The translations under genes and the position numbers were made by a program. Shown piece after piece: positions 2,580 to 35,213 of a DNA stretch of 64,000 nucleotides. The DNA comes from Cystobasidiomycetes sp. EMM_F5 (Eukaryota). The stretch spans positions 1-64,000 of the forward strand of contig JBPGPT010000017.1 in NCBI GenBank assembly GCA_051047955.1, given 5' to 3'. The stretch's first letter is position 1; every line of letters starts with the position of its first letter. Under the pieces are notes generated by a model. It saw only the letters and a list, made by a program, of their open reading frames with translations. It was not told where the DNA came from and made no database searches.

Positions 2580-2988
2580 AAAGATTGATGACATGCGCCG
2601 GGTTGTGTATAATCAGCCGTTAGCAACATCTCCAGTGCTTGGACTCGATATTTAGCGAGTAAATCCGGAAAGATCAGCTACATAAAATGCGCACGACTGG
2701 AAGTCGCTGAGAAGACGCTAGTACTAATAAGGCTTCGTTTGCTTCTAAGTCCGCGCTTGCAAGTTATCCATACGTTTCGCTGCCGTTGTCTGTGTGGTCC
2801 GTCATCTGAGTAAAGCATTCCCCGCTCTCCTTCAATACACATGAGCGGGAACAAGTGACATATGTTTAAGATGAATGTGGTTGGATAACAGTACAGCTCC
2901 TACGTTCGTCTGTCCTTGAAGACGCGTCGTGAGTATCTAGTAGATCAGGCTTTGATTGACGTTGTGCACAGGTTGACGGCGCCAACAG

Positions 2989-3675
2989 ATGTCGCGCCTG
3001 TCGCTAGAATCCGAACCCGATCTGGTAGCATTCACGTCGTCGAGCATACTCCCTCCATCTAATTACAGCTTTGCACCTCCGCCTGCTGGACACTCGCCCG
3101 CTCTCAGCATACGCGGTGACAGCCCAGTAAACCCGACAGTGCTGAATGACCAACGCGTTCAGGCTGGACGGGGAGATGCATCATTGACAGATAAGGCGGT
3201 ACCTCAGAGTCCTGGAAATCGCAGTCGGGCTCGCGCCAGTAGTCTTGGATTCAGGTTGCCGCCTCAAAACAACGATGCACACGAGGCGAGAAATGGTGCA
3301 ATCCTACCGACTTACAGCAATCAAACTACCTTGGCAGAGGAAGACGAGCACGAAGACCATCATGAAGATTCCGACGATGATGAAGACCTGAATGACCTCG
3401 AGATGGACACCTTGAACAAAAACAGCCAAGGTCGAGGCGGTTGGAAAATGCTGCCTGGCAATCAGCCGTCAACCCCAACTACGCCCAGACTGTCTTCATC
3501 TGGTAGTGTACTAGACATGGGCCATTTCAACAAGCAGGCTGGACACCGGTCTCGTTTTGAACCGCTACATTGGACGGAATGGCTGGCGATCATTACAAGC
3601 ACCTGCTTGGTCTCTTTATTGACCGTGGTTGCGCTGCATATGATATTCGAGAAAGAGGAAAAGCTATCGACGTGA
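2989..3675 (+). CDS. Hypothetical protein, disordered with a single C-terminal transmembrane helix
   Basis: 228-aa uninterrupted ORF with an acidic tract and hydrophobic WLAIITSTCLVSLLTVVALHMIF near the C-terminus; probable 5'UTR intron (gtgagt...cacag) just upstream. Confidence 0.65.
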   Translation: MSRLSLESEPDLVAFTSSSILPPSNYSFAPPPAGHSPALSIRGDSPVNPTVLNDQRVQAGRGDASLTDKAVPQSPGNRSRARASSLGFRLPPQNNDAHEARNGAILPTYSNQTTLAEEDEHEDHHEDSDDDEDLNDLEMDTLNKNSQGRGGWKMLPGNQPSTPTTPRLSSSGSVLDMGHFNKQAGHRSRFEPLHWTEWLAIITSTCLVSLLTVVALHMIFEKEEKLST

Positions 3676-3799
3676 TGCACTTGTACAAGTAGGCCGATTA
3701 TCGATGCATTTGGCTCAGCGGCGTCCTGCCCTTCAAGACTCTGCTGCTGCTGCTGCGAAGCCGAGGCCGGCCAGTCTACACGCGCATTGTGCGCATCAT

Positions 3800-5783
3800 C
3801 TACATGCTAGTCATCGGTGACATCAGAGTTTCCGTCTGGCGCATCGTAACGTCCGCATGTCTCCATCCCTTTCCTTCTTCGAAGTGATAGACGGTATAGA
3901 AGGCATACAATGCTACGAACCAGACAGCAAACCAGACGAGGTAGCCGTTCATGATTTGCGTCTCCGCAGAGTACGCAAACAGCCAAGAAGCGAGCCAAGC
4001 CGCAACGACTTGGAAAACCTGACATGTTGCGAAAAAGTTAGTTTTGGGAAGATAGTACCGCATGCAGTGCCTGACTTTTGCATCCAATTCCATCATAGCG
4101 TTAAATGACGACTGTGCTTCTTTGATAGGCGCGGCATTCGTGCACATTAGGTCTCCGCTTACTACCGGGTACGTTAGCGATGCCTTCACTTCCCAAGAAG
4201 GAGAACAACCCACTAAACATAGTCTGTCCTGTAACATCCAATAGAAGAACGAGCGCGAGACCGGATATACTTGTCCAATCTAGATGTTCCTTGCTGCTGC
4301 TTTGCCGCCGCACCAGACTTACGCAAGGGACCAGCACAAAATTCACGACGTAGATGGCGATTTGTCCACGAAGCAACGTTATAGTGCCGAAGCGCTTGTG
4401 AAAGCGGGGATATACTACGGATATTTGTCAGTATTACAAACTCCGAAGCTGTGTCAACATAACCTACGGGGCATCTCGATGAGAACGATCGTGACTGCCC
4501 GTACCATGAAGTAATTGCCTATGGCGCCGGTTCCCAAGCCCATGCCCCCCGCGTCTACTGGCGCAAAGAGAAATAGAGGTATAGCTGACTGCAGGTAGAT
4601 ATTGATGAAGACTGAACCTATGCGAGTCAATCATAAGTCTACTGGCGGAACAATATTTCCTTCATACCCATCAACGTCCACAAAAAGCAGACACTTCGCA
4701 TGTTTGGACTCCATTGTCTGACGGATTCAATCAAAGATGGTGCTGGACTTGCATTTGACTTGATCTTGGGCCCGTACTTCGATGCCGTACTCGGTAACGT
4801 CTCAGCTAGAGTGTAGTACCCCAAGATCGCTGCTAGCATCGACGGGACTGCCACGACGATTGGAGGCAGGACGTAGGGATACTGCTGCAAGAGACCAATC
4901 GACGCTGTGGCAGGAAAAAGCCGCTCGGGATGGGAGAGAAATCCTCCTGAAGTCGCCGAGAAACACCAAGACACTTGCCATGATAGACTCATAAGCGAGA
5001 ACGCAAACGCTTGGTTGTCCGCATCGGCAATCTCAGCGAGATAAGTTTTGGCTATTGCGGACTGTCTGTTATGAAATGAAAGAACCATCAAAGAATGTCA
5101 CAATACCAACGTGGGGATGATGTCGTACCCATTGAGAACGCCAGTCATTATGCGGATAACGATCATCGCCAGGTACGCCTTAGTGAAGCCGAAGGTTGCG
5201 CCAACAAGGGCGCAAGCGACCGTAGATGGTATCATAGCTGGTCGACGGCCGTAGGTATTCGCTACATAGATCCATATCTATACATGCCGTGTCAGCATAT
5301 TCACTCGGAAGCTGTGCGGGTGTCCTGCATTCACCGGAATCCCGACTGCGTTGGGGAACGCCAGGGATGCTTCCAGAATGCCGGCAGTATATCCAGTTGA
5401 TCGCGCATCTGTTGCAATGCCATATTCCAGTAGCATTTCGTTCACATACCTAGCAGAAATGTTCATGTTAGATTGATTGCGGGGCAGGGGGGCAGACGAC
5501 CAAGACTTACGGAAAGATAACAAACAGGGCCAGCGGCTATGACAATGGACAGATCAGCGCTATCTAGGCAAGCGGTCGGTGATGGCAGTACGTCAGTGCA
5601 CCGAATACCGCAGAACGCGGTTAGCAAGCCAGTAGACATCCTTGAGTGCCGGATTGGTAGCTCCTCATCGGCGATGTCATCGTCGGCATCAGATACCCTA
5701 CTACCAAACGAAGTAGATGTCTGGCCGACAGCCAGACTAGGAGTATCTGGAAGGGTAGCATATTTATGATGGTCTGGGTTCAT
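3800..5783 (-). CDS. Major facilitator superfamily transporter, copy 1 (multi-exon)
   Basis: Hydrophobic exons: TGYTAGILEASLAF, AKTYLAEIADADNQAFAFSLMSLSWQVSW, YPYVLPPIVVA, MNGYLVWF. Confidence 0.85.
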
Positions 5784-6189
5784 GGTCAGCCGTCGCAATA
5801 TTGGCAAGGAGGATGCGACGCAGACCGGACGCAAGACTCGAGCGCCATTCCAGTCAGTTCAACATGTATACTGGACCGCCAGATCATCGTTTATGTTCCG
5901 CTTCGCTAACGATTTCAGAAGTCCTCCACGGAATTGAGACTTTTGAAATGGTCGATGCGGAGCGCATTTGCGGAGAGTACGCCGCAGATGACAAGCTGGT
6001 CACAGCTCAAAGTGTGTATAGAGTCATACCAGCATCGGGTTTGAGTTTGTGCTGGCAGAGTCGAGGCGGGACTTTGTGGGGCAAGCTAAAAAGCTGACGC
6101 CGCGACTCTGGCATGCATCACCAAGCTAGCGGTACGGGCGACATTGGCCAAGTATCAACATCAAGGCCGACCAAGCTAACAAGAATCTT

Positions 6190-8115
6190 TTACTGATAGT
6201 CTGCCTGGGGAGCCAAAAGGTGTTTATTCTCAGGAGAAGTTTGCGTTGCAGCATGTCTCCACCCGCGGGCCTCTTGGAACCGGAAAGCATACACGCTCGT
6301 AAAGACTGCAGCTAGCCAGATGACGAACCATACCAAATAACCATTCATGATCTGACTTTCTGCCGAGTACGCGAGCAGGGACGACCCTAGCCACGCTGAC
6401 AGTAGCTGCATGATCTGTATACAAGCAGAGCTTTAGTGATTGCAATACTGCCGTAGCAAGGATTATAGCTTGTACCTTTCCGTCAAGCTCCACCACAGCG
6501 TTGAACATTGCTTGATCTTCTTTGAATGGAGCGGCATTGGTGCATAACAAATCTCCGCTTACTGGAATTGTATTTAGCAAAAGCCCCGATTCATCGGACA
6601 CCGACTCGACCGAACCTCTCACGTACTGAACATTGTCTGCCCGGTGACATCGCTCACCAGCAAAAGACAGAGGCTGAGAGTGCTTGCCCAATCCATATAT
6701 TCACTATGCATATAGCGGCGTACTGAGCTCGTTATGGGGATGAGGAGGAATGCAAGCGGATATATGGCCACCTGACAGCGTAGCATAGTGATTGTACCAA
6801 GCCTCTTATGAAGTCGTGGGTAGACTAACAGATGACTGTCAGTCTCTAACTTCGTGCACCGAAACATCGCGCCTACTGGGCACTTCCACGAGCATGATCA
6901 GTATTGTGCGGGCCACATAATATCTTCCGATAACATTAGTTGGCATGGCTAGTCCGCCTGCTGAGACTGGCGCGAAAAAGAAGACTGGCAGGGTAGACTG
7001 CATGAAGAACCCGAGAAGCGCAATTAGAGTCCACAAATAGAAAGTCCTCTTCATCCCAGGAGTCCACTGATGAACGGATGCTAACATAGAAGTTGGATTA
7101 TCGTCCTTATTTGCGCTCCTTCTCCTTTGAAGCGTCTCTCGAAGCGTATAGACGCCAAGCAAAGCTGCAAAGAATGGCGGTATAGCTACCAGCAGTGGAG
7201 GAAGGGCATACGGAAAGTCTTGAACAAAGCGGGAGGTAGCCAATGTCGGAAATGTTCTCTCAGGATGTGCAAGATACCCGCCAATGAAGGCAGAAAAGCA
7301 CCAAGCAACCTGCCAGGCGAGACCCATCAGAGAAAACGCGAAAGCCTGGTTCTTCTCGGTTGTAACCTCCGCCAGATACGTTTTGGCCACAGCAGACTGT
7401 CTGGAGGGGGCCGACAAGGAGATATTCGGCGTCAGTCCTCACCTGCAGAGATGATCATAGCTTGCTGCGCACCCATTCAGCAGACCACCCATGACACGCA
7501 AGAATATAAGCCCAGCGTATGATTTAACGAACCCGAATACTGAGCCAATCAGGGCGCATGCCATCGTTGTCGGGATCAAGCTGTAGCGTCGACCGAGCGT
7601 GTCGGCTACGTGTGCCCATATCTTCGTGATGGACTTGTTAGTACACGCGAAGCATTTGCCCGGCATTGGTCTTACCGGGATCGCAACAGCATTAGCGGCA
7701 GCCATCGAAGCTTCAATGAGGCCGGCAGTGTACCCCGTGGACCGTGCATCTTTTGCAATGCCGTATTCAAGTAGCATCTCGTTAATGAATCTGTGCGATG
7801 TTCATTCAACAGCGTGAGTAGTTTTTCGGTGTATCATCTCTTACGGAAACAGAAAGAAGTAGGATAAGGGCTGACAATACACTCTCATCAGTCTTTGTTG
7901 CGACAACAACTTCGTGACCATCAGTCGCATCCTACATCTGTACAGCGAACACCGCAAAATGCAGTAAGCAGCCATGGCGACAGCGGTTTCTCTGGAGAAG
8001 AAGCAGAATCTCTTGTCATCCGTCCATCTCCGACATCTCTTGTTGTGCTAGGCGCAAGCGGTGAATGCGAGATACTTTCAAGTCCGGCATCGGCAGGATG
8101 GACGCGAATGTCCAT
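6190..8115 (-). CDS. Major facilitator superfamily transporter, copy 2 (tandem paralog)
   Basis: WAHVADTLGRRYSL (MFS motif A-like), AKTYLAEVTTEKNQAFAFSLMGLAWQVAW; collinear with copy 1. Confidence 0.85.
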
Positions 8116-18309: not shown

Positions 18310-18674
18310 AAGTTATCGGGCTGCACGGCACGCTGTAGGAACTCAAGTCATGAAAGCAGCTTCATTATTCAATTGGGGATAGAAGGGAATCTGTCAGGAG
18401 CTTCGTTCCCCTTTGGCTTTTGCGTGTGCGACAAAAAGTTGCCAACTTGGTTTACGTCCAAGCGCCTCGACAAATGCTGACGCCTCGCGGCCGGCTTCAG
18501 CGCGGCGTGTAATCTGACGACAAGCTTCGAAAGTTTGACCACACAGACAGACGTTGCACAGGATTCGTACGGCTTTGGCGGTTCATTCCTGCGCGAAAAG
18601 TACGAGACGAGCAGATCAAGGCTGGGTCAGCGAGCTTCGGCGAGGGCACAGCCAACAGCCAGCTCTTGCATACC

Positions 18675-21600
18675 ATGGAAGTACAGTCCACTCCCTCGTT
18701 GGCTGGTCCAGCACGCCGTTCCAGGCGCCAAGGTACATTTGGACGAGATGGACCTGCAGCCGTCAACGGCGATGGACTGCAGTCTACACCGCCTAAATAC
18801 AAGCCTGAAACACCAGGTTATGGTCATCGCGGTAGCGCTACAACAGCCGCCGGCTCGCCATACAGTGGCCGACCGAAATCGTCAATGCAGTCGCAATCTG
18901 AAGCTCGTGTGGAAAGGCGAAAATCAATGGGCGAAGGTCTCTTGCGTAGAGCAAGGAAGAGTATAGGCTGGCTGATAGGGAGAGGGGTGGAGGACAGCTC
19001 CGTCGACGAAAGTGCAGATGCCGACAATGCTGCAGAAAACGGTCCGTCAAATAATGAGTCGAATGATGTCGAACTTGGAGGACAAAGGTCAAGTACTCCC
19101 CTCCCTGGGTCATACATTCCACACCGAAGAACATCAAGCATGGCGGCGTCCACTTCAAAAAGACCGCACAGCATAGCCGCCTACCCAGGATCATCTGCCG
19201 GCGCTGACTTCAAACAATTTGGAGGCTACGGTGATCCGCCAATGTCAGTCTTATCGACCACAGACACAGCCGATGAGAGATCTCCAGGAAAGAGAATGCG
19301 AACGTCGCATTCCACCCTGAACCTTCCTACCATAGCATCTATCCCAAAAGATTCCGGTAAATGGCCTAATGCTCCTAACGTGGTCGACTCCCACCCTCCA
19401 GCGCCTTATGGACGTCACCGGAGTCCTGTCAGGGCGTCGCCTCTTTCGCGCCCGGCGGGACTGGCGCTTCCGCCATCTAAAAGTAGCATATTTTCGAACG
19501 GACCCTCTCCTTTACACAGCTCACACACCACAAATGGCATATCTTCAGCTTTATCTTCTCCAGCAAGCCCGAGGCGCTCACCTTCTCCATCGGCCTTGTC
19601 TCCAAATACAGTACCCTTCCCATCACAGCAAGCAGGGCAGACTGAAACGTACGACTTTGGCCTGCGCTCGCAATCGCCCTTCCGTATTAACAGGTCGCCA
19701 GAAGTCTCCTTGGCACCATTGAACCTGTCTTCTGGCCTAGCCAGGTCACCGTCAGTTTCTCATGATCGCTTACCACAATCGCAAACTGCAAGTAGGCTGT
19801 ATCCGTACGGTAGACAAGCTTCTTCGCTACTTTCTCCAGGAGCACGCTCCTCATTTGCTTTTCCAACTTCGCACTCGTACGCCGGCAGCCTTGGTGCGTA
19901 CGCAGGCCAAAAGCGAGGTCTTAGTGCCATCTCCAATTCACCTCCAAAGGTATCACCAGTTCATTCTACGTATTCAAATCGATACCGACATGGCACACCC
20001 ATGGGAGTCTCGCCAACATTGACAGATTTCGATCATCTACATCGCGCCAAACGCCAGAGGACAAGCTTTGTGTGGCACCCTGAGCGTGGCTTCGTGGCTG
20101 GAGATGAGGATGGAAAGCCGATAGAAGAGCCAGAAGAGCCGATTGAAGCACCTAAAAACGACGCAGAACGGATACTGCAGCGTTTAGAAAGTACGAGAAC
20201 CTTGCAGGTCAATGGTCTTCGAAGTCATGTGAGTTCAATGAATAATGGATCAGCATCAGTATAATATCTCTTCTGACTTACTACCGTTTACAGAGTCCAC
20301 AAAGGATCAGCGTACCTGTGCCTAGCGCATCTCAAGGTTTGCCGGCATCCGCTTCTGCTATCTTTGCGACCAAGATCTCTTCGTCTCTACCGACAACTGC
20401 ATCCGAGTCTGCCATTTCGCCGATAGCACGGCGTCAAAGAGCTGCCCAGGAGGAGGCTGCTGTTCAACGTGGCCGCATAAATGATCGCGGCGGTCTCGGT
20501 GAGAGATTAAGGGATGCCGATATGGCACGACAGCGGAAAGTATCGAGTCGCACCAAATCGCCAGAGTCGGTTGTTGAGAGCAATTCTGGGCGTGATAGGC
20601 GACGAATGCACTCGACACGAGAACGAGATGAAGACATTGACGATGTTGACCTTGATCATACGGAGGACGATGACATCGTCGAGGATCTACCTGTGCCCGT
20701 TCGTACCAAGAAAGCGGTCCGCTCGCGGTCTCAGAGCGTCTTGAGCAACACAAGTGCGATGGACGAGGATGGAGCAGTATCACCCCGCAGATCAGCTAGA
20801 CAACGCATGAAGAGTCATGAGCCGATGTCTGATGCCGAAGCACCCGCACCAAAATCGCGGTCAAAAGTGGTCAAAACACCCAAAAAAGAGAAGGCTGCTT
20901 CTGCCAAGCGTGCCAAAGCCCAGTCACCACAATCGCAGGGTTCTGCGTCGGATGTCGAGGTCGAAGAAGGAGTCCGCACGCGTTCTGGGCGTCGCTTGCG
21001 GTCACCATCTGCTGCTCCCGCGTCGCCTCCGCCTGTGCTGAGGTCTAGTACAGTAAAGCGCAAAGCTGCTTCGCCTGCGGCTGCGGCTGCCACTGCTCAG
21101 CGAGGCATCGAGCAAGTGCTAGATTCGCAGTCGGCAACGCCAAGAGCTGCAAGAAGTGCATTTTCGGCTAGACACATAGACGACGATGATGATAGAGTTG
21201 TCGTACAGCCGGACTCTTCAGGCGCCAATGGATCGACAGAACACCTGCAGAAGCTGAGATTACCTTCATCGGTATTTGCAAGCCGAAATCGATTCCGTTT
21301 CACTAGCTCGCCCAGCTCTCCTAAACTAGGTCCTTCACCATCACAGCAAAGCGCGGCGATTATCGAATCCAACAGTGGCTTGGTGCCTTTAGCAACGATC
21401 GGGTCATCCGGGAATGTGAAGGCTTCTTCCGTGCCAAGCTTTGGTCTTTTGCCAGCTGCCGCTGAGACAGGGACAGCGGATCCAGCGCCTATTCAACTCC
21501 CGAAAGCAAGCGCATCTACATCAATATCCGGTACCTCGTCCTCTTCCGTTCCTGCCAGATCCTCTACGCCGCTGTTCTCCTTCACCGCTCCACAACCACC

Positions 21601-23010
21601 TCAAGAGTCGCCAGCCCTTCTTCCGTTCAAGGTCAGCGGGCCGCTGGCCTCGAGTGCGAACGGTACTCCTGCATCTGCCAGCGCAACAGCACCACCAGCC
21701 TTCTCGTTCAGCGCACCTACGAAGAACACTCCGAAGCCGGGTGCGGAAGCACCTAGCCCTGCTTCAAACTTTGCATTTGGCAAAAGTTCATCCGATCAAC
21801 AAGTAGGTAATGCTTTACACCGGAATACGTGACGAGACTGACGATTGACTCTACACAATAGGATCCGAAAGAGGTCAAAGCTCCCGTTTTCTCCTTCAAC
21901 AATCCTACCACAGCTGCAACATCTGCTACACCGTCTGTGGCATCATCAGGCAACCCATTCGCCGCATTTTCTAAACCTGCACCTCCCGCTGCTGCTGAGA
22001 ACACAAAACCTGAGACTGCAGCGAAAGCAACTCCGTTCTCCTTTACGAGTACAAGCAAGGCCGCAAGTGATCCGTCGATAGCTAGTGAGACGGCTTCTGC
22101 GGTACGGCCAGCATTCAGCTTCGGTACAAAGCCGTTAGCTGCCCAGGCAGACGCTGCAAAGCCAGATCAAGCGACGGCTGCATTAGCAGCCCCTTCCTCA
22201 CAGCCTGAGAAGCCCGCCAATGTACCTGCATTCTCGTTTGGATCCACAACTACGTCCGCTCCCGCAGCTGCATCGAAATCTCCAGCCTTCAGCTTCGCTC
22301 CGGCATCTCCTAGCAAACCCCAAGCGAGCACAACTTCGCCGACTCCACCTGCGTCATCTGCTGGCACAACCTCAGCGTTCAACCTAGGTCAAACAACCCC
22401 GGCGGCAACAGCTGGGACTGCACCGGCATTCAAGTTTGCTTTCAACGGTGCGGCCCCTGCATCGAGCACCCCTGCTGCTAATACAACGCCAGCGTTTTCT
22501 TTCGGTGGTTCCGCATCCCAGGCCAACCCCTTCGCATCGCCCGCTGCAGGTGGGTCAGCGGTCCCGCCTGCAAGTACAGGCAGCGGCAATGGATCACTTC
22601 CAAAGCCGTTTGCGTTTGGCTTCGGCGCTCCGGCCGCTGGCGCTGCTGTTGCGCCCGCGCCTTCGGGTACCCCAGGTGTAAAACCTGGTCCAGCAGGCGG
22701 TAGCCTGTTTAACACCAACGGTAGTGCTGCTCCGGCGTTTTCCTTTGGATCAACCACGACAGCAGCAACACCATTCAGTTTTGGCAGCGCCGCTGGAACC
22801 ACAAGCCCTCTGCCGACCCCGACGTTTGGTACGGCGTCGTCAACGCAGCCGGCTTTTGCCTTTGGTGCAGCCGCATCTGCGCCCTTGACTCCTGGAGGTT
22901 CGCCTATATCGCCTGCAACGAGTTTGTTCAATGTCGGGAGCGGGGGCGACGACAGCACGAGCCCGCAGAAACGGACGATTCGGCCATTGCGAACTACCAA
23001 GCGGCGCTAG
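18675..23010 (+). CDS. FG-repeat nucleoporin (Nup1/Nup124/Nup153-like nuclear basket protein)
   Basis: Three long ORFs joined by introns; many PAFSFG/PFSFG repeats; basic C-terminal RTIRPLRTTKRR tail as in Nup1/Nup153. Confidence 0.8.
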
Positions 23011-23736: not shown

Positions 23737-26700
23737 ATGTCGGCCGATGAAGGCCAGGGCAGCAAGCCCGCTATGGCCCAGAAACCGTCGACCGGAATAA
23801 CGCTGGCTTCTGTCGCCAGCTCTGGTTTCAAGCTCCAGGCTTCGCCGGACATGCCCAGCGAAGAGGTATTGGACGGTAATGCACCAGTTGAAGACACTTC
23901 TGCAGCAGGAGGACGCGATGCCGCACCACACCCGTCCGGCACTGCTGGAGCACTCAGTCAAGCCAGCAGCTTGATGGAAGATGGGGACTCCGGCATGTTT
24001 ACGTTTGAACGTCCGAATACCGGTCGACCTGGGAGCAGGTCTTCTGGGAACCCTACCCTCGGCTCGCGCTTGAATACTGGGATCGGTATTTCCAACATCA
24101 GCATGATGGGCGCAGCCGGTAGGCCTCTGACAGGTATTGCTATTCCCGAAGAAGTCGAGGGCATGGCGGAGGAGGATGCAGAGCCCTTCTCGCCAGCAGC
24201 AGCACTTGCGGCTGCGTATCGTGGTGGACAGTATGTTCCGCCAAAGACGGCTACCCGAACGTCCATGAGCACACCGATTATCGAACTGGACGAACGCATG
24301 AAGACGGCCAGTCACGCTAGCGCTCTCGATAACGGGCATTCGTCCCCAGCACAGTCTGGTATGACTGAGTATAGGTGTGTGCGAAGACAGTATAGAGCTG
24401 TATTTTCATCACTAATGATCTGCGCTGCACAGCATGACAACGGATAAAGTGGACATGGAAAAGATTGGCGCACCTAATCCGTATGAGAATCTGTCACCAG
24501 AAGAGCTGTTCAAAATGGCAGCGGAGCTGGATTTGATGCAAGCAGGGCATTCCAGGCCGGAGTTGCTTGATATTGGCGATGAGGAGGACTCGCCGTTTGC
24601 TGAAGTGCGAGCAAGTGTCAGCAATTTTGATGACCCAAACATGCCATGCCTCACATTCCGAGCCGCTTTCATCGGTCTTTCCTTCACAATTATCGGCGCC
24701 GCGCTCAACACATATTTTCAGCTTCGATATCCTGCTCCTTTATTAACAACGGTACTGGTAGAAATTCTTGCATACCCTTACGGAGTATTTTTGGCTCGCA
24801 TACTGCCGGTACGCGATTTCAAAACGCCTCGGTTGCTGCAAAAAATTGGCCTTTTCGAGGAATGGTCTTTCAACCCTGGGCCCTTCAATATTAAGGAACA
24901 CACTGTCATAATGATCATGGCGAATGTCGGCTTGAATCCAGCCTACGCTGTCAATATCCCCCTTACTCTCAACAAATTCTATGGCAAAACGCTCGGAGCT
25001 GGGTTTGATGTTTTGTTCCTCCTCAGTACGCAAGTCATTGGCTTCTCATTCGCTGGTCTAGTGCGACGATTCTTGGTGTGGCCAGCTGCCATGATCTGGC
25101 CTTCCAATCTCGTTATCTGTACGCTACTCAACAGCTTCCACGCGGAAGAATTCGATGGATCAGATGGGTCTTTATCCAAACTTCGCTATTTCTGGTATGT
25201 TTTTGCTGGGGCCTTCGTCTGGTACTTTGTACCAGGTAAGTCAGCAATATGCGCCGCATTAGCATTCTGTTGACGCTGCTCGCTCGGCAGGCTATCTATT
25301 TGTGGGATTATCGGCTTTCTCGTGGATATGTTGGGTTGCCCCCCGTATGTCCGTCGCTATCAGTGGTCCACCGTTGAGCTGAGAAGTACTGTCAGAAAAA
25401 CCCGTGGTCAACCAGCTCTTTGGCGTTATTAACGGACTGGGCATGAGCTGTCTCACTTTTGACTGGAGTCAAATCGCGTACATCAATTCGCCTCTCATAG
25501 TTCCTTGGTGGGCTCTGGTCAACGTATTTGTTGGTTTCGTCGGCATATACTGGATCATTGCGCCTGCACTCTACTACACAAATGTCCGTAATCTAGATTC
25601 TGATTACAGGGCTCAATGCTAACCGAGCATAATCCAGGTGTGGGACAGTGCTTATCTCCCAATTTCCACTAACACAATCTTTGATCGATTCGGAGCACCG
25701 TATAACACGTCTCGAGTCTTGACGCCAGACCTCAGACTTGACATAGCTGCTTACGAGCAGTACTCGCCGGCTTACTTACCGATTACTTTTGCCATGCTCT
25801 ACCTCATATACCTAGCTCTTGCATCATCGTCGCTAGTCCACCTCGTGCTCTACCATGGCAAAGACATGTGGAAGACGGTGAAAGACATCAAGAACGCTCA
25901 GACTGATATCCACGCCAAACTCATGCTCGCATACAAGGAGGTACCATGGTGGTGGTACGGCATAACTTTTTCTGTGTTCATAGCTATGGCTATTGCCGTG
26001 AATGAGGTAAGCAACGGCAAACTATATCAGCGGACGAGAATTAACGTGGTTATAGGCATACGATTCGTCATTGCCAGTGTGGGGCGTGCTTCTGGCCTTG
26101 CTTCTTCCGGCAATCTATATACTCCCGGCTGGGATCGTGTATGCCTTGTCCAACCAGGGTGTAAGTCAGCCAACGCTCCGTTGCCGGGTACCCACATAAG
26201 TGACAAGTGATACAGTTGAGCATCAGTCTTCTGGCACAACTCATACCTGGTTACCTACTACCTAACCGTCCGATGGCAAATGTGGTCGGTCTGAGAATGC
26301 GTTTTACTGAAAGAGTCCAGGCATCTGACTCTAAGTTATGTACAGATCTTTAAGGCTTACAGCAACCAGTCTCTGATTAACGCCCTCTACTGGGTCCAAG
26401 ATCTGAAACTCGGCCATTACATGAAGATTCCGCCGCGCACTACGTTCGCTGTTCAACTTAGTGCAACATGCGTCGCTGCTTGCATTCAGGTAGCCATGCT
26501 TCGCTTGCTCGAGACTGTTGTTCCGGATTTGTGCTCTCGCGATCAAGCGGCACTTCTGAGCTGTCCGGTTGCTCGTATAACATACAACGCATCACTGATA
26601 TGGTATGTTTCAAGGCACACACTATCAAGCCTGGGTTCAGCTGAGAGCGTTCGCACAGGGGCTTGATTGGGCCCGAACGCATCCTCGGTCCGGGAGCACC

Positions 26701-27246
26701 GTATAATCCAATTTTATGGGCGCTCCTTGGCGGCGCTTTCCTCCCGGTAATCACCTGGGTCATGTGCAAATACTTCAAATGGAAATGGGCGCAGCATATC
26801 AATATACCCGTCATGTTATCTGGAGCGTCACTGATACCCCCAGCGTCTGGAATCAACTACTCGTCCTGGTTCATCACGGGCTTCGCATTCCGTGCGTGCT
26901 TATCGTCAAGAAGTTTCCGTGACTAACGCTATTAGTACAGAATTTTTGCTTAGGCGGTATAAATTCCGATGGTGGGCCAAATTTGGGTTTATCACGTCTG
27001 CAGCAATGGACAGTGGCACCATTGCGAGTGCCATCCTCATGTTCGTCACGCTCATGGTGCCGAAAGGCGGGATCAACTTGAATTGGTGGGGCAACAACGT
27101 TTACATCAACACATACGATGCAATGGGAGTACCATACTTGACACCGTAAGTCGACTAGCATACAGAATAAGCAGCGAGGTGACAACCAAACTAACGTTGA
27201 TATTATGCGTAGTCCGGACTCTGGTTTCGGACGGACGATATGGTGA
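23737..27246 (+). CDS. OPT-family oligopeptide transporter A, long N-terminal tail
   Basis: EEDSPFAEVRASVSNFDDP, NPGPFNIKEH, WPAAMIWPSNL, DLKLGHYMKIPPR motifs; probable 5'UTR intron ~23614-23684. Confidence 0.96.
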
Positions 27247-27538
27247 ATAAGGCCAAATTGTAACAATGCATACCTCATTAGTATTACAGGATTGTTGTTG
27301 TTTGTTCGTGTCTGTGTTTCGATATGATGACAGCCTGTGCCGCAGAGTCAGCTTGCGTGACCCGACTCAGTATAATTTATGAATACAACAGGCGGGTATT
27401 AAGTCGTTACTACATGGGTCATGGAGTAAACGCGTAAAAGGATCTATATAAGGTATTCGTGCGCGATCTGCGAGTATCCGACGTGGTCATAGGAGTGGAC
27501 GTAACGATAAGAGTAACACGCTATGCAGTAGCATTACT

Positions 27539-27931
27539 CTACTTTCCGCAGCAGTGGCTGTGCGAGTCGCAAGTCAGATGCCTCGAGTTATTTGATGCAG
27601 CGGGAACAAGGAGCGCTCGACTCACATCCATCCTTGACGCTTCTCCTCGTCACGCTGGACCATCTCGACCTCGGAGCGCTTTCCTCCGCCCTTGCTGTAA
27701 AAGCATGAGTGCGTCAATGCGTTGCCCAGCGCGAGACTCGAGAGGAATCAACTTACATCCAGGCACCCTTAACGTTCAGAGCCTCACGCTCCTATAGACA
27801 GCCGGATAAGGATGTCAGTATGCACTGCTTCGCCTGTCTTGACCGCCGGATATGGCAAGACCCACCTCGACAACCGGAGCCGCGGCGACGGAAGCGATCA
27901 TAGCGAGAGCTGCGAGAATTGCGAACTTCAT
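27539..27931 (-). CDS. Small secreted prepropeptide (62 aa) with Kex2-type KR sites; putative peptide-signal precursor
   Basis: Exons 27931-27866, 27791-27757, 27694-27626, 27557-27539 with GTGGGT/GTAAGT/GTGAGT donors, YTGAC branch sites and YAG acceptors; protein MKFAILAALAMIASVAAAPVVEEREALNVKGAWIKGGGKRSEVEMVQRDEEKRQGWIHCCGK*. Confidence 0.88.
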
Positions 27932-29058
27932 GTTGGTAGGGTTTGTGGGTTGTGTTCGTGAGTATTCGTGTGTGGTTCGCAGCGACTGTGTGTGTGCAAG
28001 AGGAAGAAAGAGCGTCGTCCGCTCCGACTCGAGATGACGGGAATTCCTGGACCGACCTTACGCTCGGCGCTCCCACCTGCATTTCAGTGAGATGCCCTAT
28101 TCTTATCAATTCTGAGCGTGGAATTACCGCTCTTCCTGCCCAAAACCTGCCCGAAACCTCCCCTTGGCCCCTCTGCGCCACTACTGCCGATGCCCGAAAG
28201 TGTGTGCCGGAAATCGATGAACAATAAATTTACGATCACTACATCACTAGCGTGTCAACCTTGATGGAGAAGAATGGCGGACGCGACGGCGCACGTGAGC
28301 TGAGTGCTGACCAACGCGCGCTCGAGCCTGCCTCACAAATGTGCAGGCGCGTAAGAGGTGCATAACCGTGCATAACCACGAAGTGAATTCAATTCAACGC
28401 TTTTAAGCAATGCCGCTGGCTTTGCAAGCTTTGCCAACGAAGCCTAATCGTTGCTGCAGCTGGCGTCAGCCTTTCGCACAAGATTTATGGGGGCCATCAC
28501 TCGTGCAGCTTGTGTGAGGCGAGGGCTTGCAGATGCTGCACCTCGCCGAAACGGGAGCGGAACCTCACTCACGCACGGCATCGGACCTCTCGTCCTATGT
28601 GTTCGTAGCGAGTAGGGTTGCGAACCGAATCTGGCTGCATCCAGCTCGCGAAGATGCCATGGGCGCGTTTGCAGCATTGCCGGCAAGACCGCCCAGTATA
28701 AGGCGCTTGATAATCAGTACACCAGCAGCTCAAGTTGTTGAGATCCGACATCAGCACTATAACCGGTACTGCTCGTATCAATGTTTGTCAGCCAGCAGCT
28801 CGAGCGTAGCTCAACCGTCCTTCGGCCGTCAAGCTGGCAACACTTCTTCCATTATATCGCTCCAGAGCAAGACCATCAGTGACCAGGTCGTATGAAAGTC
28901 GCGTCAAAGTAATTCCGCAGCCTCCGGTTAGGAAATATCGACATTGCGCTTGTATTGCTACACACACACAGCCTATGGGCATGCAGCATCAGTCGTACAG
29001 CGGGGGAACGACCCATCGCCCAATTTCTTAACATAACAGGAAATACTGAATTCGCTTC

Positions 29059-32000
29059 TTAGGACCAAGATGTCGGGCCGAACCCTTCCGATGGAGCGTC
29101 TACAGGATCTTGTCAGCCTTGACTGCATGTTGCTAATCATAGCAGTGGCGATTCACCTAAATATGGCATTCCTAGCCAGTCGAACGTTTCTGTGAAAACT
29201 GCGTTGCCCCACCATTTTCTGCGTTTGTCGGGAAGCATCAGCTCGTGGACCATACGAGCTCTTGGTAGTGACATCGGCATACATGGAGATGCGACCGCTT
29301 TTCGGCAGCTGTAACGCAAAGAATATGAAGACCGTCGACAGGACTGTACCTGCATCTAGACCTGCTGAAGTGACGAAGTTGAATCTAGACCACCATCGGA
29401 AACGATGTCGTCTGAGATAGTACTCTGACGGATGGAAGAAGGAAAGCTTTAGTTGTCAAATTGCTGATCCGTATACGGACTTACGAAAAATTGCACCAGC
29501 AATGAACCAGCTCGAATAGTTGAGCCCCGTTGCCGGCGGAATGAACGTCACCCCGTTGATCAATACTGGAATATTGATATACCTCATCCAAGAGTTCGGC
29601 CACTTCTTGGATGCCAAGTAGAAAGGTATAGGGAGGAGCAGGCCAAGAAGAAGGAAGTACAGCAGAGCCCTGTAGGGGGTGTCGCCGCCAAAGAAACGCG
29701 CAGGTCCAATTACGCCCCATATGAGGGATGCCTGAAACTGCACGTTGGCAGGCGCGCAATTCATACGTGCCGGCTGATCAGGCGTGCATAGGTCTGCAAC
29801 GAAAACCTCCAAAGAGCGCTTGACCGCCACCTGAGCGAATGCCGATAAGAAGGTCGCCAGGATTTGGACTGATGCAGATTAGCCTGGGCGAATCGGGGAA
29901 GAGGTGGATTGGCAGCTCACCATGAAACGTAATCCGCGGCGGAATTTTCATGTAATGCCCCAATTTGAGGTCTTGAATGAAATACAGAGCGGATTGCAAG
30001 CACTGAATACTAAAGGTCTTGAAGATCATGTTGGGTATAGCTTGGTTGGGCAGCAGGTAGCCTGGAACGAGTTCTGCTAAAAGATTGACCGTTATCTATG
30101 AGATAGTGTCAGACGGAGCGTGATACATTGTATTGTCATCCAGTCCCCCTTACAAGCTGAGCTGTAATACTGTATACGTATCCGCCTGGCAACACGTAGA
30201 TGGCTGGGAGCAGAATGGCTAAGAGTAGTCCCCAAACCGGTAGACCCGTGTGGAAGACCTAGAGCAAAATAAGAACTTGCTTTCTATTGGTTAAATCGAA
30301 GTAGCTCACCTCAACGGCAACAACCGCTAAGCCGGTGAAAGTCAGAAAGACCAAAGCATACCACCAGTCCGGTACCTCAGGATAATTACGCATGAGCTTG
30401 GCATGCACGTCTTCCTCTTCAGATTTTGAACTTCTGAACTTCCCCCAGATCTCCTTCCCATGGTAGAGTATGGTGTGCACTACTGCCGAAGAGGACAAGC
30501 AGAACGAGAGCGCATAAACGACGGCGTAGGTAGTGGTGACAAATAGGGGCGAGTATGCTCTGAAGGCATCTTCGTCAATCTTGATGTCGGGAGTGATTAC
30601 TTGCGTTACGTTATATGGCATGCCATACCGGTCGAAATTGCCTTGCGAAGAGATGGGTAGGTATGCAAAGTTCCACGTCTAGTTGCGCACAGTCTCGCGA
30701 CGTGAGCATATACAGTCCGCCGCAGAAGAAGCGACTCACGTTGGTGTAGTAGAATATGGGGACAAGGACCCAGTATATGATTACAAAGCCAGCGGTAATA
30801 TTGACGATTGCAAACCATGGCACAAACAGTGGAGAAACCACGTACGCAATCTGCGTCCAATCAAAGCTTATGCCAGACATTCCAAGGCCGGTTGCTACGC
30901 CAAAGAGTTGGTTCACAACGCGGTTTCGAGGCCAGATCCAACACACAAAGGAAAAGAATGATAGTCCTTGGAAGATGAAGCCTGGCATAAAGTACCAAAG
31001 GAAGGCGCCCGAAGCAACGAAGAAAAACATCTTGAACCGCGTCACTCCGTTTAATGGGTCATCTTCCTCGGCGTGGAAGGTGTTGAACAGCGTACAAGTT
31101 ACCAAGTTTTGAGGCCAGATGAGCGATGCTGGCCAAACGAGGAACCGTCGGCAGATCCCCGCGAATGAGAATCCAATGAAAGAGGTGCTGATTGTCAACA
31201 GTGCGTCGAAGCCCATCCCTTTCGGGATGTTGTAGAATCGATCCAGCACGATTGTTGTGTTCAAAGCGAATGAGGGAGATATTGCTACATTTGCCATGAT
31301 GGTAATCACGGCATGCTCCTTGACATTGAATGGCCCAGGGTTGAGTGAGAACGTGCTGGGAAAGCCGATGCGTTGCAAAAACTTGGGATACTTGTAGTCC
31401 GTTGCAGGTAGAATTCTGTCCATAAGCTTGCCCGCAGGATAGGAGAGCACCTGAACGGTAATTGGGGTGAACATGGGACTTGGCTGTCTGACGAGGAAGA
31501 AGAAGTTGAAAGCAGACCCAGCGGCCGTGAAGAAGCACCCCAAAAATACTGCACGAAATGTTAGACAAGGCATCATTGGATCATCGTAGTTTGAAACCGA
31601 TGCAGCTACTTCTGGATATGGCGAGTCCTCCTCATCAAGCTGGAATGCGGAGAGAGTAAGCTTGTCATCGCCCATGCCGCCCATTTTGGCACCACCAAGG
31701 TCACCGAGCGAGTCGTGCGTGTGGCGATTGAGTGTGCTGTCAGCGCTGTATCCACTGGCAACGAAGCCGCTTTCCATAGTCGCAGGAGTAGATTCGATGA
31801 CGAAGTTTGACATCTCGTACGTATTCGATCGGACACCCTTTGTGTATCGCATATCCGTGAAGTACTTTTCGTCCTTTGGACTGCCGCTTCGTCCGTGCAT
31901 TGACTTCTCGGAAAAGTAGGCATGGTCCGAATGACCACCATCCCTGGCTATCGGAGGCGAGCGACGCTGCTTTCTTCTGGTTGACATCGTACGCAAGCTT

Positions 32001-32845
32001 GCATCCCCGTGCTGATCATCAGTGCAATACGATGGAGGCATGCCCTCGCTATCGTTGCGATTACGAGAGCGCGACATGGATCGCATGGAAATTGCGCGCA
32101 CACTGTCTTCCCCAGCCAGCTCTATAACGGGTGTGGACGTGCGGCGTGCTGAATAAGCGGAAATGGCAGACTGTGGATCACCAGAATGCATTGGCGATGA
32201 TGGATAGGCATATGCTAGCCTGCGCATATTGCGTCCGTCACTATCGGCAGCACCGCTGCTTCCGTCGGCATCTTGTTGTTGCTGGTACTGCCTGGCAATT
32301 CTTTGAGCCTCCGTTGTGGACGGAGGCGTCGTTGTGGAGTGAGTAGGACTATGCCGCTTATTTAGGACCTCGGAAGCTTGCTCTGATGGGGTATGAAGCG
32401 CCTGGCGGGCCGTTGGTAAGTGGTACTTGTACTTGATGGCATGATGATCTCCGCCGGTCGCATCGGGGAGGCCATTTACAGAAGGCTCCTTTGCTGTGGG
32501 ACTGCCTGTCTGTCCAGTTTGCGTCAAGGTCTGTGCAAGATTGGCGGTTTGCGGGCGTGTGAATTCGAAGAGATCGCTGTCGTCTTCGTCATCGTCGAAT
32601 TGGTCTTCACCGTCATCCTCGTTGATATCGCCAATGGTAAAATTGGCGTTGGCTGATTGTGAGGTTTGCCCTTGCTGCTGTCGTGGTTGCTCGTATACAT
32701 CAGGCACCGCACCTGGAGTACCTCGCTGCCATTGTGATGTGGACGAGGGTAAGGAGGCTGATACCTGACCGTCGCCTCCAGTGATACCAACGATGCTACT
32801 GCTCACGCTCTCGCCTTTCTTCTTCCGCCGAAACAAGTTGTGCAT
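29059..32845 (-). CDS. OPT-family oligopeptide transporter B, ~400-aa N-terminal tail
   Basis: EEDSPYPEVAASVSNYDDP, NPGPFNVKEH, WPASLIWPQNL, DLKLGHYMKIPPR; ends GFGPTSWS*. Confidence 0.96.
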
Positions 32846-33713: not shown

Positions 33714-34985
33714 ATGTCGGCAGCAAGCTCTGATGCTCCGCTGGAGCTCACGTATGCCTCCTATGGTTCGCTTGATATGTGCATCGATGTCTTTATACCC
33801 GAAGTCGCGACAGCGGAAAAGCCAGCACCTATCCTATTGTGGTTTGTGAGTAATCTCGTAAATGGATGCACGCGTCACCATCGCTAATGAGTATCTCTTG
33901 AAAGCATGGCGGAGGTCTTTTACAAGCAAGTCCTTGATGACGTCCTGAATTCGTGTGGACTACTTTGTTTACGTTGCTGTACGGCGAATAAAAGGGAACC
34001 CGCAAAGGTGTGCTCCTATCATTCATACCGGTCGCCCGTTCCTCTAACGATTATCGCATTTCAGGCGCTCCGCATCATTGCCATACTGCCGTAAAAAACG
34101 GACTGTGTTTGATATCGGCAGATTATAGGCTGGCTCCACAAGTCAAGCTGCCAGACATCATGCAGGATTGCGCCAATCTCATGACATACATTCGCTCTCA
34201 AGACTTCAGGCAACATACCAAAAGTCTGGTAGACAGCGACCGGATCTGCGTTTCTGGAGGATCTGCCGGAGGATGGTTAGCTCTTCTCGTAGGATTGGGC
34301 ATCGGGTTCAAGGAATGCGGCATCGAGCCGCCTTCACCATGCAAAAATCTCATCATTGCCAGTTTATACCCAATATCAGACCTGCAGGATCCGTGAGCCA
34401 GGACAGATACTTCATGCAATTTGCCGGCTACTGTGCTAATCTTATACATCATCGCTATCTTCAGCTTCTGGCACACGAAGCAGAGACCTGTCTCGTACAT
34501 GTCCCGCGTCGTGACAGACGAGGAGGTGGCAGAGCATTTGGATACACGCAAGCCGGCGTTGGCTTACAACACCCCATCGGACGGCCGCAACGTGTGCTAT
34601 CACTACATGGTACAAGAGTGAGCTTCCCGTGGTCTCGTTGCCTGTCTTGTTGGCTATGGCTGACGAATGTCTGTCTGTCTTGTTCAGAGCAATACTTACA
34701 AAGCTTCTCCTCGAGGGTATTGACATCCCGCCGACCGCATTTAGTGTAGCGCCAGCAATACGTGAGGGTCGGTACACCTCCTTACCGCCGACCTATATCA
34801 CGCACGGGACAGTCGACGACAAAGTTCCGATTCAGCAGGCAGACGATGTGGTGGAGGCACTTGAAGCAAGAAGCGACAAGGAGGTGCTGTATGAACGGAT
34901 TGATGGCGCAGATCATCTCTATGACCGGGATGAGAAGGTGGATATGCATATCATGTACGACTTTATTCGGCGTCATTTTGCATGA
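33714..34985 (+). CDS. Alpha/beta hydrolase (HSL-like esterase fold), multi-exon
   Basis: Spliced WFHGGGLLQG oxyanion motif, ADYRLAPQ, GGSAGG nucleophile elbow, HGTVDDKVP and GADHLYD catalytic Asp/His. Confidence 0.9.
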
Positions 34986-35142
34986 GCGTAATCGCGACAA
35001 GTTCAACAATCTGCGCTGAGCCCAATGAGTGCGCTAAGATCCGATTCTTGCAATTGGGTCAACAAACATACACGAGGAACAAGGTCACACTAACAAGTAC
35101 TGCCGAGCCAAATCAAGTCATAAGCGCCTTAAGCATTGCAGG

Positions 35143-35213
35143 ATGCTGCTGCTGCTGCTGCTGCTGCTACTGATGATGCTGATGGTGATGACGACGATGA
35201 CGAGGAGGAGGAG
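35143..35213. repeat. Compound trinucleotide microsatellite (GCT)n followed by GAT/GAC/GAG runs
   Basis: Directly visible: gctgctgctgct...gatgatgctgatggtgatgacgacgatgacgaggaggaggag. Confidence 0.85.

Follow-up and report, generated by a model that had tools for sequence, protein, structure and literature searches.

A predicted secreted-peptide gene between two co-orthologues of Cryptococcus Opt1 in a cystobasidiomycete: a candidate peptide-signalling module

Is peptide signalling by re-import, known from Cryptococcus neoformans, also encoded in other Basidiomycota? The question is raised by a locus in Cystobasidiomycetes sp. EMM_F5 (GenBank assembly GCA_051047955.1, contig JBPGPT010000017.1, positions 1 to 64,000 of the forward strand; this 64,000-nucleotide stretch is called the window below), where a tiny gene predicted to encode a secreted pre-pro-peptide lies between two genes of the OPT family of oligopeptide transporters, here termed OPT-A and OPT-B. 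The precedent is the 11-residue peptide Qsp1, which PMC7537855 describes as secreted in the form of a pro-peptide, matured extracellularly by the protease Pqp1 and acting inside the cell in an Opt1-dependent manner; its discoverers call Qsp1/Opt1 the first eukaryotic peptide quorum-sensing system (PMC7537855). Opt1 is CNAG_03013 and is needed for Qsp1 uptake (PMC8092252; PMC7537855), and QSP1/CQS1 is CNAG_03012 (PMC10914677; PMC8561399). A preliminary description of the locus had taken the secreted precursor, the import through Opt1 and the adjacency of the two genes as established. The first two are in print in the cited passages of these papers, and we infer the adjacency solely from the consecutive locus tags CNAG_03012 and CNAG_03013. 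On the comparisons set out below, the probability that the EMM_F5 locus is an export-process-reimport module of the Qsp1/Opt1 kind is put at roughly 40%.

The elements of the locus are as follows (lengths in nucleotides, nt, or amino acids, aa):

23737-27246, plus strand: OPT-A, Opt1-clade oligopeptide transporter gene, 11 exons, 989 aa, from PF03169 matches and a tblastn/splice model; exons 23737-24389, 24433-25235, 25291-25344, 25396-25583, 25638-26006, 26056-26160, 26216-26284, 26346-26602, 26659-26891, 26941-27145 and 27213-27246

27539-27931, minus strand: predicted small secreted pre-pro-peptide gene, 4 exons, 62 codons, from a gene model with signal-peptide, intron-element and codon tests; exons 27931-27866, 27791-27757, 27694-27626 and 27557-27539 (66, 35, 69 and 16+3 nt, the last including the TAG)

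27932-29058, minus strand: region upstream of the small gene, including the 3' flank of OPT-B, by direct reading

29059-32845, minus strand: OPT-B, Opt1-clade oligopeptide transporter gene, 8 exons, 1127 aa, from PF03169 matches and a tblastn/splice model; exons 32845-30740, 30678-30310, 30258-30154, 30095-29921, 29868-29485, 29424-29283, 29218-29157 and 29099-29059

The two transporter genes are convergent, and their stop codons are 1812 base pairs (bp) apart (27247-29058). The small gene is physically linked to both: it lies on the strand of OPT-B, 1127 bp downstream of the OPT-B stop, and tail-to-tail with OPT-A at a distance of 292 bp from stop to stop. This is the arrangement given in the preliminary description, which had placed the convergent pair about 1.8 kb apart, with a spliced prepropeptide gene as the only gene that could be built between them; the coordinates agree and the gene model was reproduced exactly. 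No second gene was found in the 1812-bp interval, no Rfam match was obtained at E <= 1 in 27000-29300, and 27932-29058 contains no further signal-peptide-like start.

The small gene begins with an ATG at 27931 in a good start context (A at -3), preceded at about 60-90 nt by a pyrimidine-rich block and then by a CA-rich leader, and ends with a TAG at 27539. Its three introns of 74, 62 and 68 nt have the donors GTGGGT, GTAAGT and GTGAGT and the branch-like sequences CTGAC, TTGAC and CTGAC, located 16-22 nt before the acceptors TAG, CAG and CAG. The predicted product opens with a signal peptide of classical form, in which Lys stands at position 2 and a core of Ala, Leu and Ile gives way to consecutive small residues; an acidic pro-region is also present, and two KR sites would divide the product into three fragments. 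The motif G-(A)-W-I occurs twice, and in each case a phase-2 intron divides the Ile codon in the identical place. The second KR is directly followed by a C-terminal nonapeptide that starts with Gln, contains Trp-Ile and an H-C-C motif and ends in H-C-C-G-K. The repetition of the G-(A)-W-I unit is suggestive at the peptide level only, given that the corresponding DNA, intron included, gave a local alignment score of 18 against 14.8 +/- 2.2 in shuffled sequences (P ~0.09).

Retention of intron 2 or intron 3 would produce an immediate stop (ATG-TAA at 27756-27754 and ATG-TGA at 27625-27623, respectively) and hence shorter precursors ending in ...W-M. Alternative splicing of these introns could in this way alter which C-terminal peptide arises. 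Such stops follow from any phase-2 GT(A/G)AGT donor and are therefore no evidence in themselves.

A gene model of this kind invites the objection that there is no protein-coding gene at all, and that chance splice signals were over-fitted behind a hydrophobic ATG-initiated open reading frame (ORF), or that the region yields a non-coding or 3'-untranslated-region transcript. The model, initially drawn up by eye, has to fit three introns into 393 nt, and the internal repeat falls short of significance in the DNA. Furthermore, no Pfam family matched the product, and no homologue was found among proteins of 34-109 aa at E <= 10, where two candidates that shared a word with the peptide both failed. 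The protein collection searched includes the window's own OPT-B ORF (P0001) and evidently does not include the small-gene product.

Set against these points, the splice signals are in excess of chance. With a complete intron-like element defined uniformly as a donor, a branch site and an acceptor within 45-90 nt, the 393-nt span contains three, where dinucleotide shuffles average 0.20 and reach three in 6 of 2000 cases; across the whole window, true introns included, such elements occur about once per kb per strand. The intron lengths (62-74 nt) and the spacing of the branch sites resemble those of the 17 homology-supported introns of OPT-A and OPT-B, which are 43-67 nt long.

Codon usage points in the same direction. 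A log-odds measure, for which 13 coding stretches from the window (both OPT models plus 11 long ORFs) served as the training set, gave the spliced frame 0.106 per codon, compared with 0.104 +/- 0.048 in 203 coding chunks of the same length, which are in-sample and make the comparison somewhat generous. None of 790 overlapping local non-coding windows, taken from four stretches, reached the value of the small gene. The other two frames (-0.19 and -0.22) and the introns (-0.16, 0.03 and -0.28) score like non-coding DNA, so that the coding signal belongs to the spliced frame only. In the entire window, both strands considered, 16 ATG starts resemble signal peptides; the small gene ranks fifth among them by hydrophobic score and is the only one between the OPT genes. 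The excess of intron elements, the coding-type codon usage and the signal-peptide start together indicate more than a chance assembly. We consider it very probable from these statistics that the small gene is a real protein-coding gene, and improbable that the model is an artefact or a non-coding transcript.

The identity of the transporters was approached by modelling both genes from tblastn alignments of relatives combined with splice signals. The relatives included an intron-free protein of 1234 aa (P0003) and, for OPT-A, also the C. neoformans protein P0065. Neither homology-guided model contains a frameshift or an internal stop, and the least certain junction of OPT-A is its first intron (43 nt, donor GTATAG). 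Five ORF pieces of the two genes match PF03169 (E 1e-15 to 6e-75) at 57.7-253.5 bits, compared with a cut-off of 25.8, and jointly cover profile positions 1-585 of 623, which places both products in the OPT family. The family's C-terminal '...GFGP..W' is kept in both full models when they are aligned with relatives. OPT-A and OPT-B are 53% identical over 724 aa, and a full-length alignment of OPT-B with P0003 gives 53% identity overall, which rises to 78% across the N-terminal half of the OPT domain.

Phylogenetic relationships were derived from the best 120 of 1276 matches, with FastTree (116 rows) and with an IQ-TREE mixture model (33 rows); more distant OPT paralogues are absent from this set, and no such outgroup was included. 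The closest named relatives within it are from Pucciniomycotina, first among them Cystobasidium minutum, at 60-63% identity when the N-terminal half of the OPT domain is compared. In the two trees, C. minutum KAK9895732 is the sister of OPT-A (support 100 and 99). OPT-B joins two close relatives and then C. minutum KAK9895729 (96 and 97). The OPT-A and OPT-B groups together form one Cystobasidiomycete clade (92 with FastTree, 98 with IQ-TREE), and support for the placement of both genes inside it ranges from 87 to 98. On this evidence the duplication that gave rise to OPT-A and OPT-B predates the split from C. minutum.

This clade is the counterpart of a single Tremellomycete clade that includes C. 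neoformans Opt1. Elsewhere the tree roughly matches the species tree: each Tremellomycete species has one protein, and each Cryptococcus or Kwoniella species is represented by one protein cluster among these best matches. The C. neoformans member, P0065, has P358, M484 and W932, the residues mutated in CNAG_03013 according to Table 1 of PMC8092252, and is identified as Opt1 because it carries them. Identity to this protein is 50% over about 725 aa for OPT-A and 50% over 749 aa for OPT-B. The long cytosolic extension at the N-terminus (OPT-A about 270 aa, OPT-B about 400 aa) has an acidic patch and, after it, F-x-F-x-(R/P)-P in OPT-A, OPT-B and C. neoformans Opt1 alike, and the motif columns F93 and P98 are nearly invariant in a 12-row alignment that includes the Cryptococcus protein. 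By sequence and in both trees, built as they are in the absence of distant OPT paralogues, OPT-A and OPT-B are co-orthologues of Cryptococcus Opt1. A phylogeny with Opt1 had been proposed in the preliminary description as a check on its reading, and in this respect the reading gains support.

The position of the transporters also bears on the suggestion that the peptide is some other product connected with OPT transport: a secreted metal-binding peptide regained as a chelate, or the core of a ribosomally made and modified peptide. The H-C-C motif and the short KR-flanked cores would suit such a product, and the OPT superfamily does include metal-chelate carriers, those of the Yellow-Stripe branch. 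However, OPT-A and OPT-B belong with Opt1 to the clade of peptide transporters and lie outside the Yellow-Stripe branch. Nor did a Pfam scan of 39 ORFs from the window detect a DUF3328/UstYa protein, a methyltransferase-fused precursor, a cytochrome P450 or a tyrosinase nearby, and the sole adjoining enzyme is a generic alpha/beta hydrolase. A chelating or modified product is accordingly given only a slim chance.

The small gene was likewise considered as a possible a-factor-type precursor of a basidiomycete lipopeptide mating pheromone. Being small, with a Cys at -4 relative to the C-terminus, its product recalls such precursors, but the residues after the Cys are not aliphatic, and no STE3 receptor or homeodomain gene occurs among the same 39 ORFs. 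An N-terminal signal peptide is moreover incompatible with the cytosolic prenylation of pheromone precursors. The predicted signal peptide essentially excludes this identification.

With the gene probably real and the transporters in the Opt1 clade, the peptide module would operate as follows. The precursor would enter the endoplasmic reticulum and the secretory pathway, where the signal peptide would be removed. A Kex2-type protease would cut after each KR, and a Kex1-type carboxypeptidase would trim the basic residues. The C-terminal nonapeptide would be released, and its Gln start may cyclise. A second Trp-Ile peptide would be freed as well, its N-terminus needing a further, possibly extracellular, cut, as in pro-Qsp1. 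The peptides would build up outside with cell density until OPT-A, OPT-B or both imported them, and they would then act inside the cell. The two importers, diverged from each other (53% identical), may differ in the peptide that they carry. To our knowledge, uptake of a quorum-sensing peptide has been established for no fungal importer other than Opt1, and the module reading is strengthened by the co-orthology of OPT-A and OPT-B with it and by their common N-terminal motif. The nonapeptide would be within the size range of Opt1, since Qsp1 has 11 residues (PMC7537855).

The comparison with Qsp1/Opt1 reveals three likenesses. In both cases a tiny signal-peptide precursor gene is found beside an Opt1-clade OPT gene, a short Trp-containing peptide stands at the C-terminal end of the precursor, and the transporters are co-orthologous (about 50% over about 725-750 aa) with the same motif in the N-terminal extension. 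There are also differences. The peptide sequence is unrelated and the function is here a prediction from the genes; importer genes number two, against one in Cryptococcus, and there may be two peptides; the two KR (Kex2-type) sites suggest intracellular processing, whereas Qsp1 is matured outside by Pqp1; and the host belongs to Pucciniomycotina, whereas Cryptococcus belongs to Agaricomycotina.

Other peptide systems are less close. The precursor resembles Kex2-processed repeat proteins (KEPs) and the alpha-factor precursors of ascomycetes in its signal peptide, its short KR-bounded cores and the Trp in these cores. It differs from them in that its two motifs bear only a loose resemblance and their repetition does not reach significance in the DNA, and from the alpha-factor type in the absence of Ste13-type dipeptides after its KR sites. 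Membership among the KEPs was rejected, because two KR sites give three fragments where the KEP survey pipeline, as described in PMC6339444, calls for at least 4 after in-silico KR/RR cleavage, and because of the non-significant repeat. The scheme of secreting a pro-peptide, processing it and importing it again is common to the Gram-positive Phr/Rap, PapR/PlcR and SHP/Rgg systems with their Opp permeases, and the parallel between Qsp1 and Gram-positive import-type signalling is drawn in the discussion of PMC7537855. Opp is an ATP-binding-cassette system, however, and unrelated to the OPT family, and a cognate intracellular receptor gene is not identifiable in this window.

The chief competitor of the signalling module is the view that the genes are unrelated neighbours: a genuine secreted peptide or mini-protein, for instance antimicrobial or adhesive, beside nutritional importers of oligopeptides (proton-coupled) or of glutathione that stem from an old tandem duplication and for which the peptide would not be a dedicated cargo. 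We regard this as a serious possibility, although with less than an even chance of being correct. Database names in the clade include 'Glutathione transporter 1' and 'isp4', in keeping with a nutritional role.

Evidence from other genomes bears on both views. The C. minutum orthologues of OPT-A and OPT-B are three accession numbers apart in the GenBank, RefSeq and EukProt numbering, so that the pair appears to be still linked there, with two annotated proteins between. Sporidiobolales underwent an independent OPT duplication, and their pairs are likewise linked: Sporobolomyces ruberrimus has tags 000242 and 000244 with one locus between, and S. carnicolor has 004946 and 004947. A metagenome scan, in which 187 of 331 matched stretches encode a relative, returned 77 loci, all of which are at most about 51% identical to OPT-A or OPT-B; contigs among them bear tandem arrays of 2-5 Opt1-clade genes, with up to five in one 25-kb locus. 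The commonness of linked Opt1-clade paralogues cuts both ways: it fits nutritional amplification, and it leaves room for small unannotated genes in the gaps.

One 80-kb metagenome contig has two same-strand Opt1-clade arrays, of four stretches (L011) and five stretches (L015), that barely overlap. The spacing is about 2-3.5 kb, and the amplification is far larger than the pair in the window.

Several results weigh against a signalling module. The tandem arrays argue for ordinary nutritional expansion, of the sort typical of nutrient transporters, and under such expansion adjacent genes can be without any relation to each other. A crude scan of the 77 metagenome loci, which included no close relative, showed no convincing gene for a small secreted peptide next to an OPT gene, and a comparison of the intergenic DNA and the six-frame pieces of the small-gene region with these loci gave nothing beyond noise. 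Signal-peptide-like starts occurred there at 0.30/kb within 2.5 kb of OPT genes and at 0.20/kb farther off; the excess mostly reflects antisense reading of the acidic N-terminal extensions and carries no conclusion. The upstream regions of the small gene, OPT-A and OPT-B share no word beyond chance: they have two 8-mers in common, where 0.57 are expected and 13% of shuffles reach two (P = 0.13), and no 9-mer. The lack of a homologue counts here too, as it leaves no sign of a conserved pairing. The small peptide has no similarity to the Qsp1 sequence printed in PMC5959062 beyond small size and Trp, and with Gly/Ala/Trp content as all that it shares with that 11-mer, it does not belong to the Qsp1 peptide family. 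The preliminary description had anticipated as much in calling the peptides unrelated. Finally, a large scan is expected to flag a coincidence now and then.

If the genes were unrelated, on the other hand, the parallel with CNAG_03012/CNAG_03013 would be a coincidence, and the chance that a tiny signal-peptide gene occupies one of the three slots of the pair is, as a rough estimate, a few per cent. The signalling module is supported by the gene-like statistics, the KR architecture, the Opt1 clade, the consecutive QSP1/OPT1 tags and the linked C. minutum pair. The odds given here for the several readings come from rough argument and not from computation: chance would fill a slot in a few per cent of cases, a conserved pairing would make such occupancy likely, and the prior for a pairing of this kind outside Cryptococcus is low. 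The analogous export-process-reimport system of the preliminary description gains support from the kinship of its transporters with Opt1, and as a whole it is partly supported.

A bolder version can be formulated, in which precursor genes paired with Opt1-type importers are old and widespread in Basidiomycota and have been overlooked because they are multi-exon, fast-evolving and unannotated. On that view the present locus would represent another eukaryotic quorum-sensing system of the import type, the second one and independent of the first, in a subphylum other than that of Cryptococcus. Its two diverged importers would each be tuned to one of two peptides that are cut from the same precursor. 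We consider this extended proposal unlikely, if worth stating.

For fungi other than Cryptococcus, no report of such a peptide-importer gene pair was found, in a search that did not cover subscription papers and supplements. Should the precursor turn out to supply what the flanking co-orthologues of Opt1 import, signalling through imported peptides would no longer be a peculiarity of Cryptococcus, and the flanks of Opt1 orthologues would be a practical place to find fungal signalling peptides that annotation has overlooked. Should the genes be unrelated neighbours, one new unannotated gene for a small secreted peptide and a conserved pair of Opt1 paralogues remain.

The enzyme gene adjoining OPT-B, considered above in connection with modified products, is:

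33714-34985, plus strand: alpha/beta-hydrolase gene of about 310 aa, divergent from OPT-B, from Pfam matches on ORF pieces

Its start codon is about 870 bp from that of OPT-B. The ORF pieces match BD-FAE, Abhydrolase_3 and the C-terminal catalytic domain of Peptidase_S9, with a GxSxG motif in the nucleophile elbow GGSAGG; they contain neither a signal peptide nor a beta-propeller. A role as a prolyl oligopeptidase (S9A) processing enzyme was considered and rejected, as the propeller is absent, BD-FAE and Abhydrolase_3 match equally well and the homologues are about 300 aa long. The 70 homologues listed are spread across Basidiomycota and include no C. minutum protein, and the one from S. ruberrimus has tag 004832, far from the OPT pair of that species. 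The hydrolase is regarded as a neighbour and is not counted in the module.

Three further observations concern other parts of the window. On the plus strand, 18513-23010 holds three consecutive long ORFs with FG/FSFG repeats and Ser/Thr/Ala/Pro spacers and no Pfam match; by its sequence it looks like an FG-nucleoporin gene that ends about 730 bp upstream of OPT-A. On the minus strand, 2977-7522 contains two apparent tandem paralogues with near-identical hydrophobic N-termini ('MNGYLVWF...', from 3952 and 6348) and a weak match to MFS_1, probably a duplicated transporter of the major facilitator superfamily (MFS). Just downstream of the hydrolase, a CTG/CAG-type run at 35100-35180 reads as poly-Leu/poly-Cys on one strand and as poly-Ala/Ser on the other.

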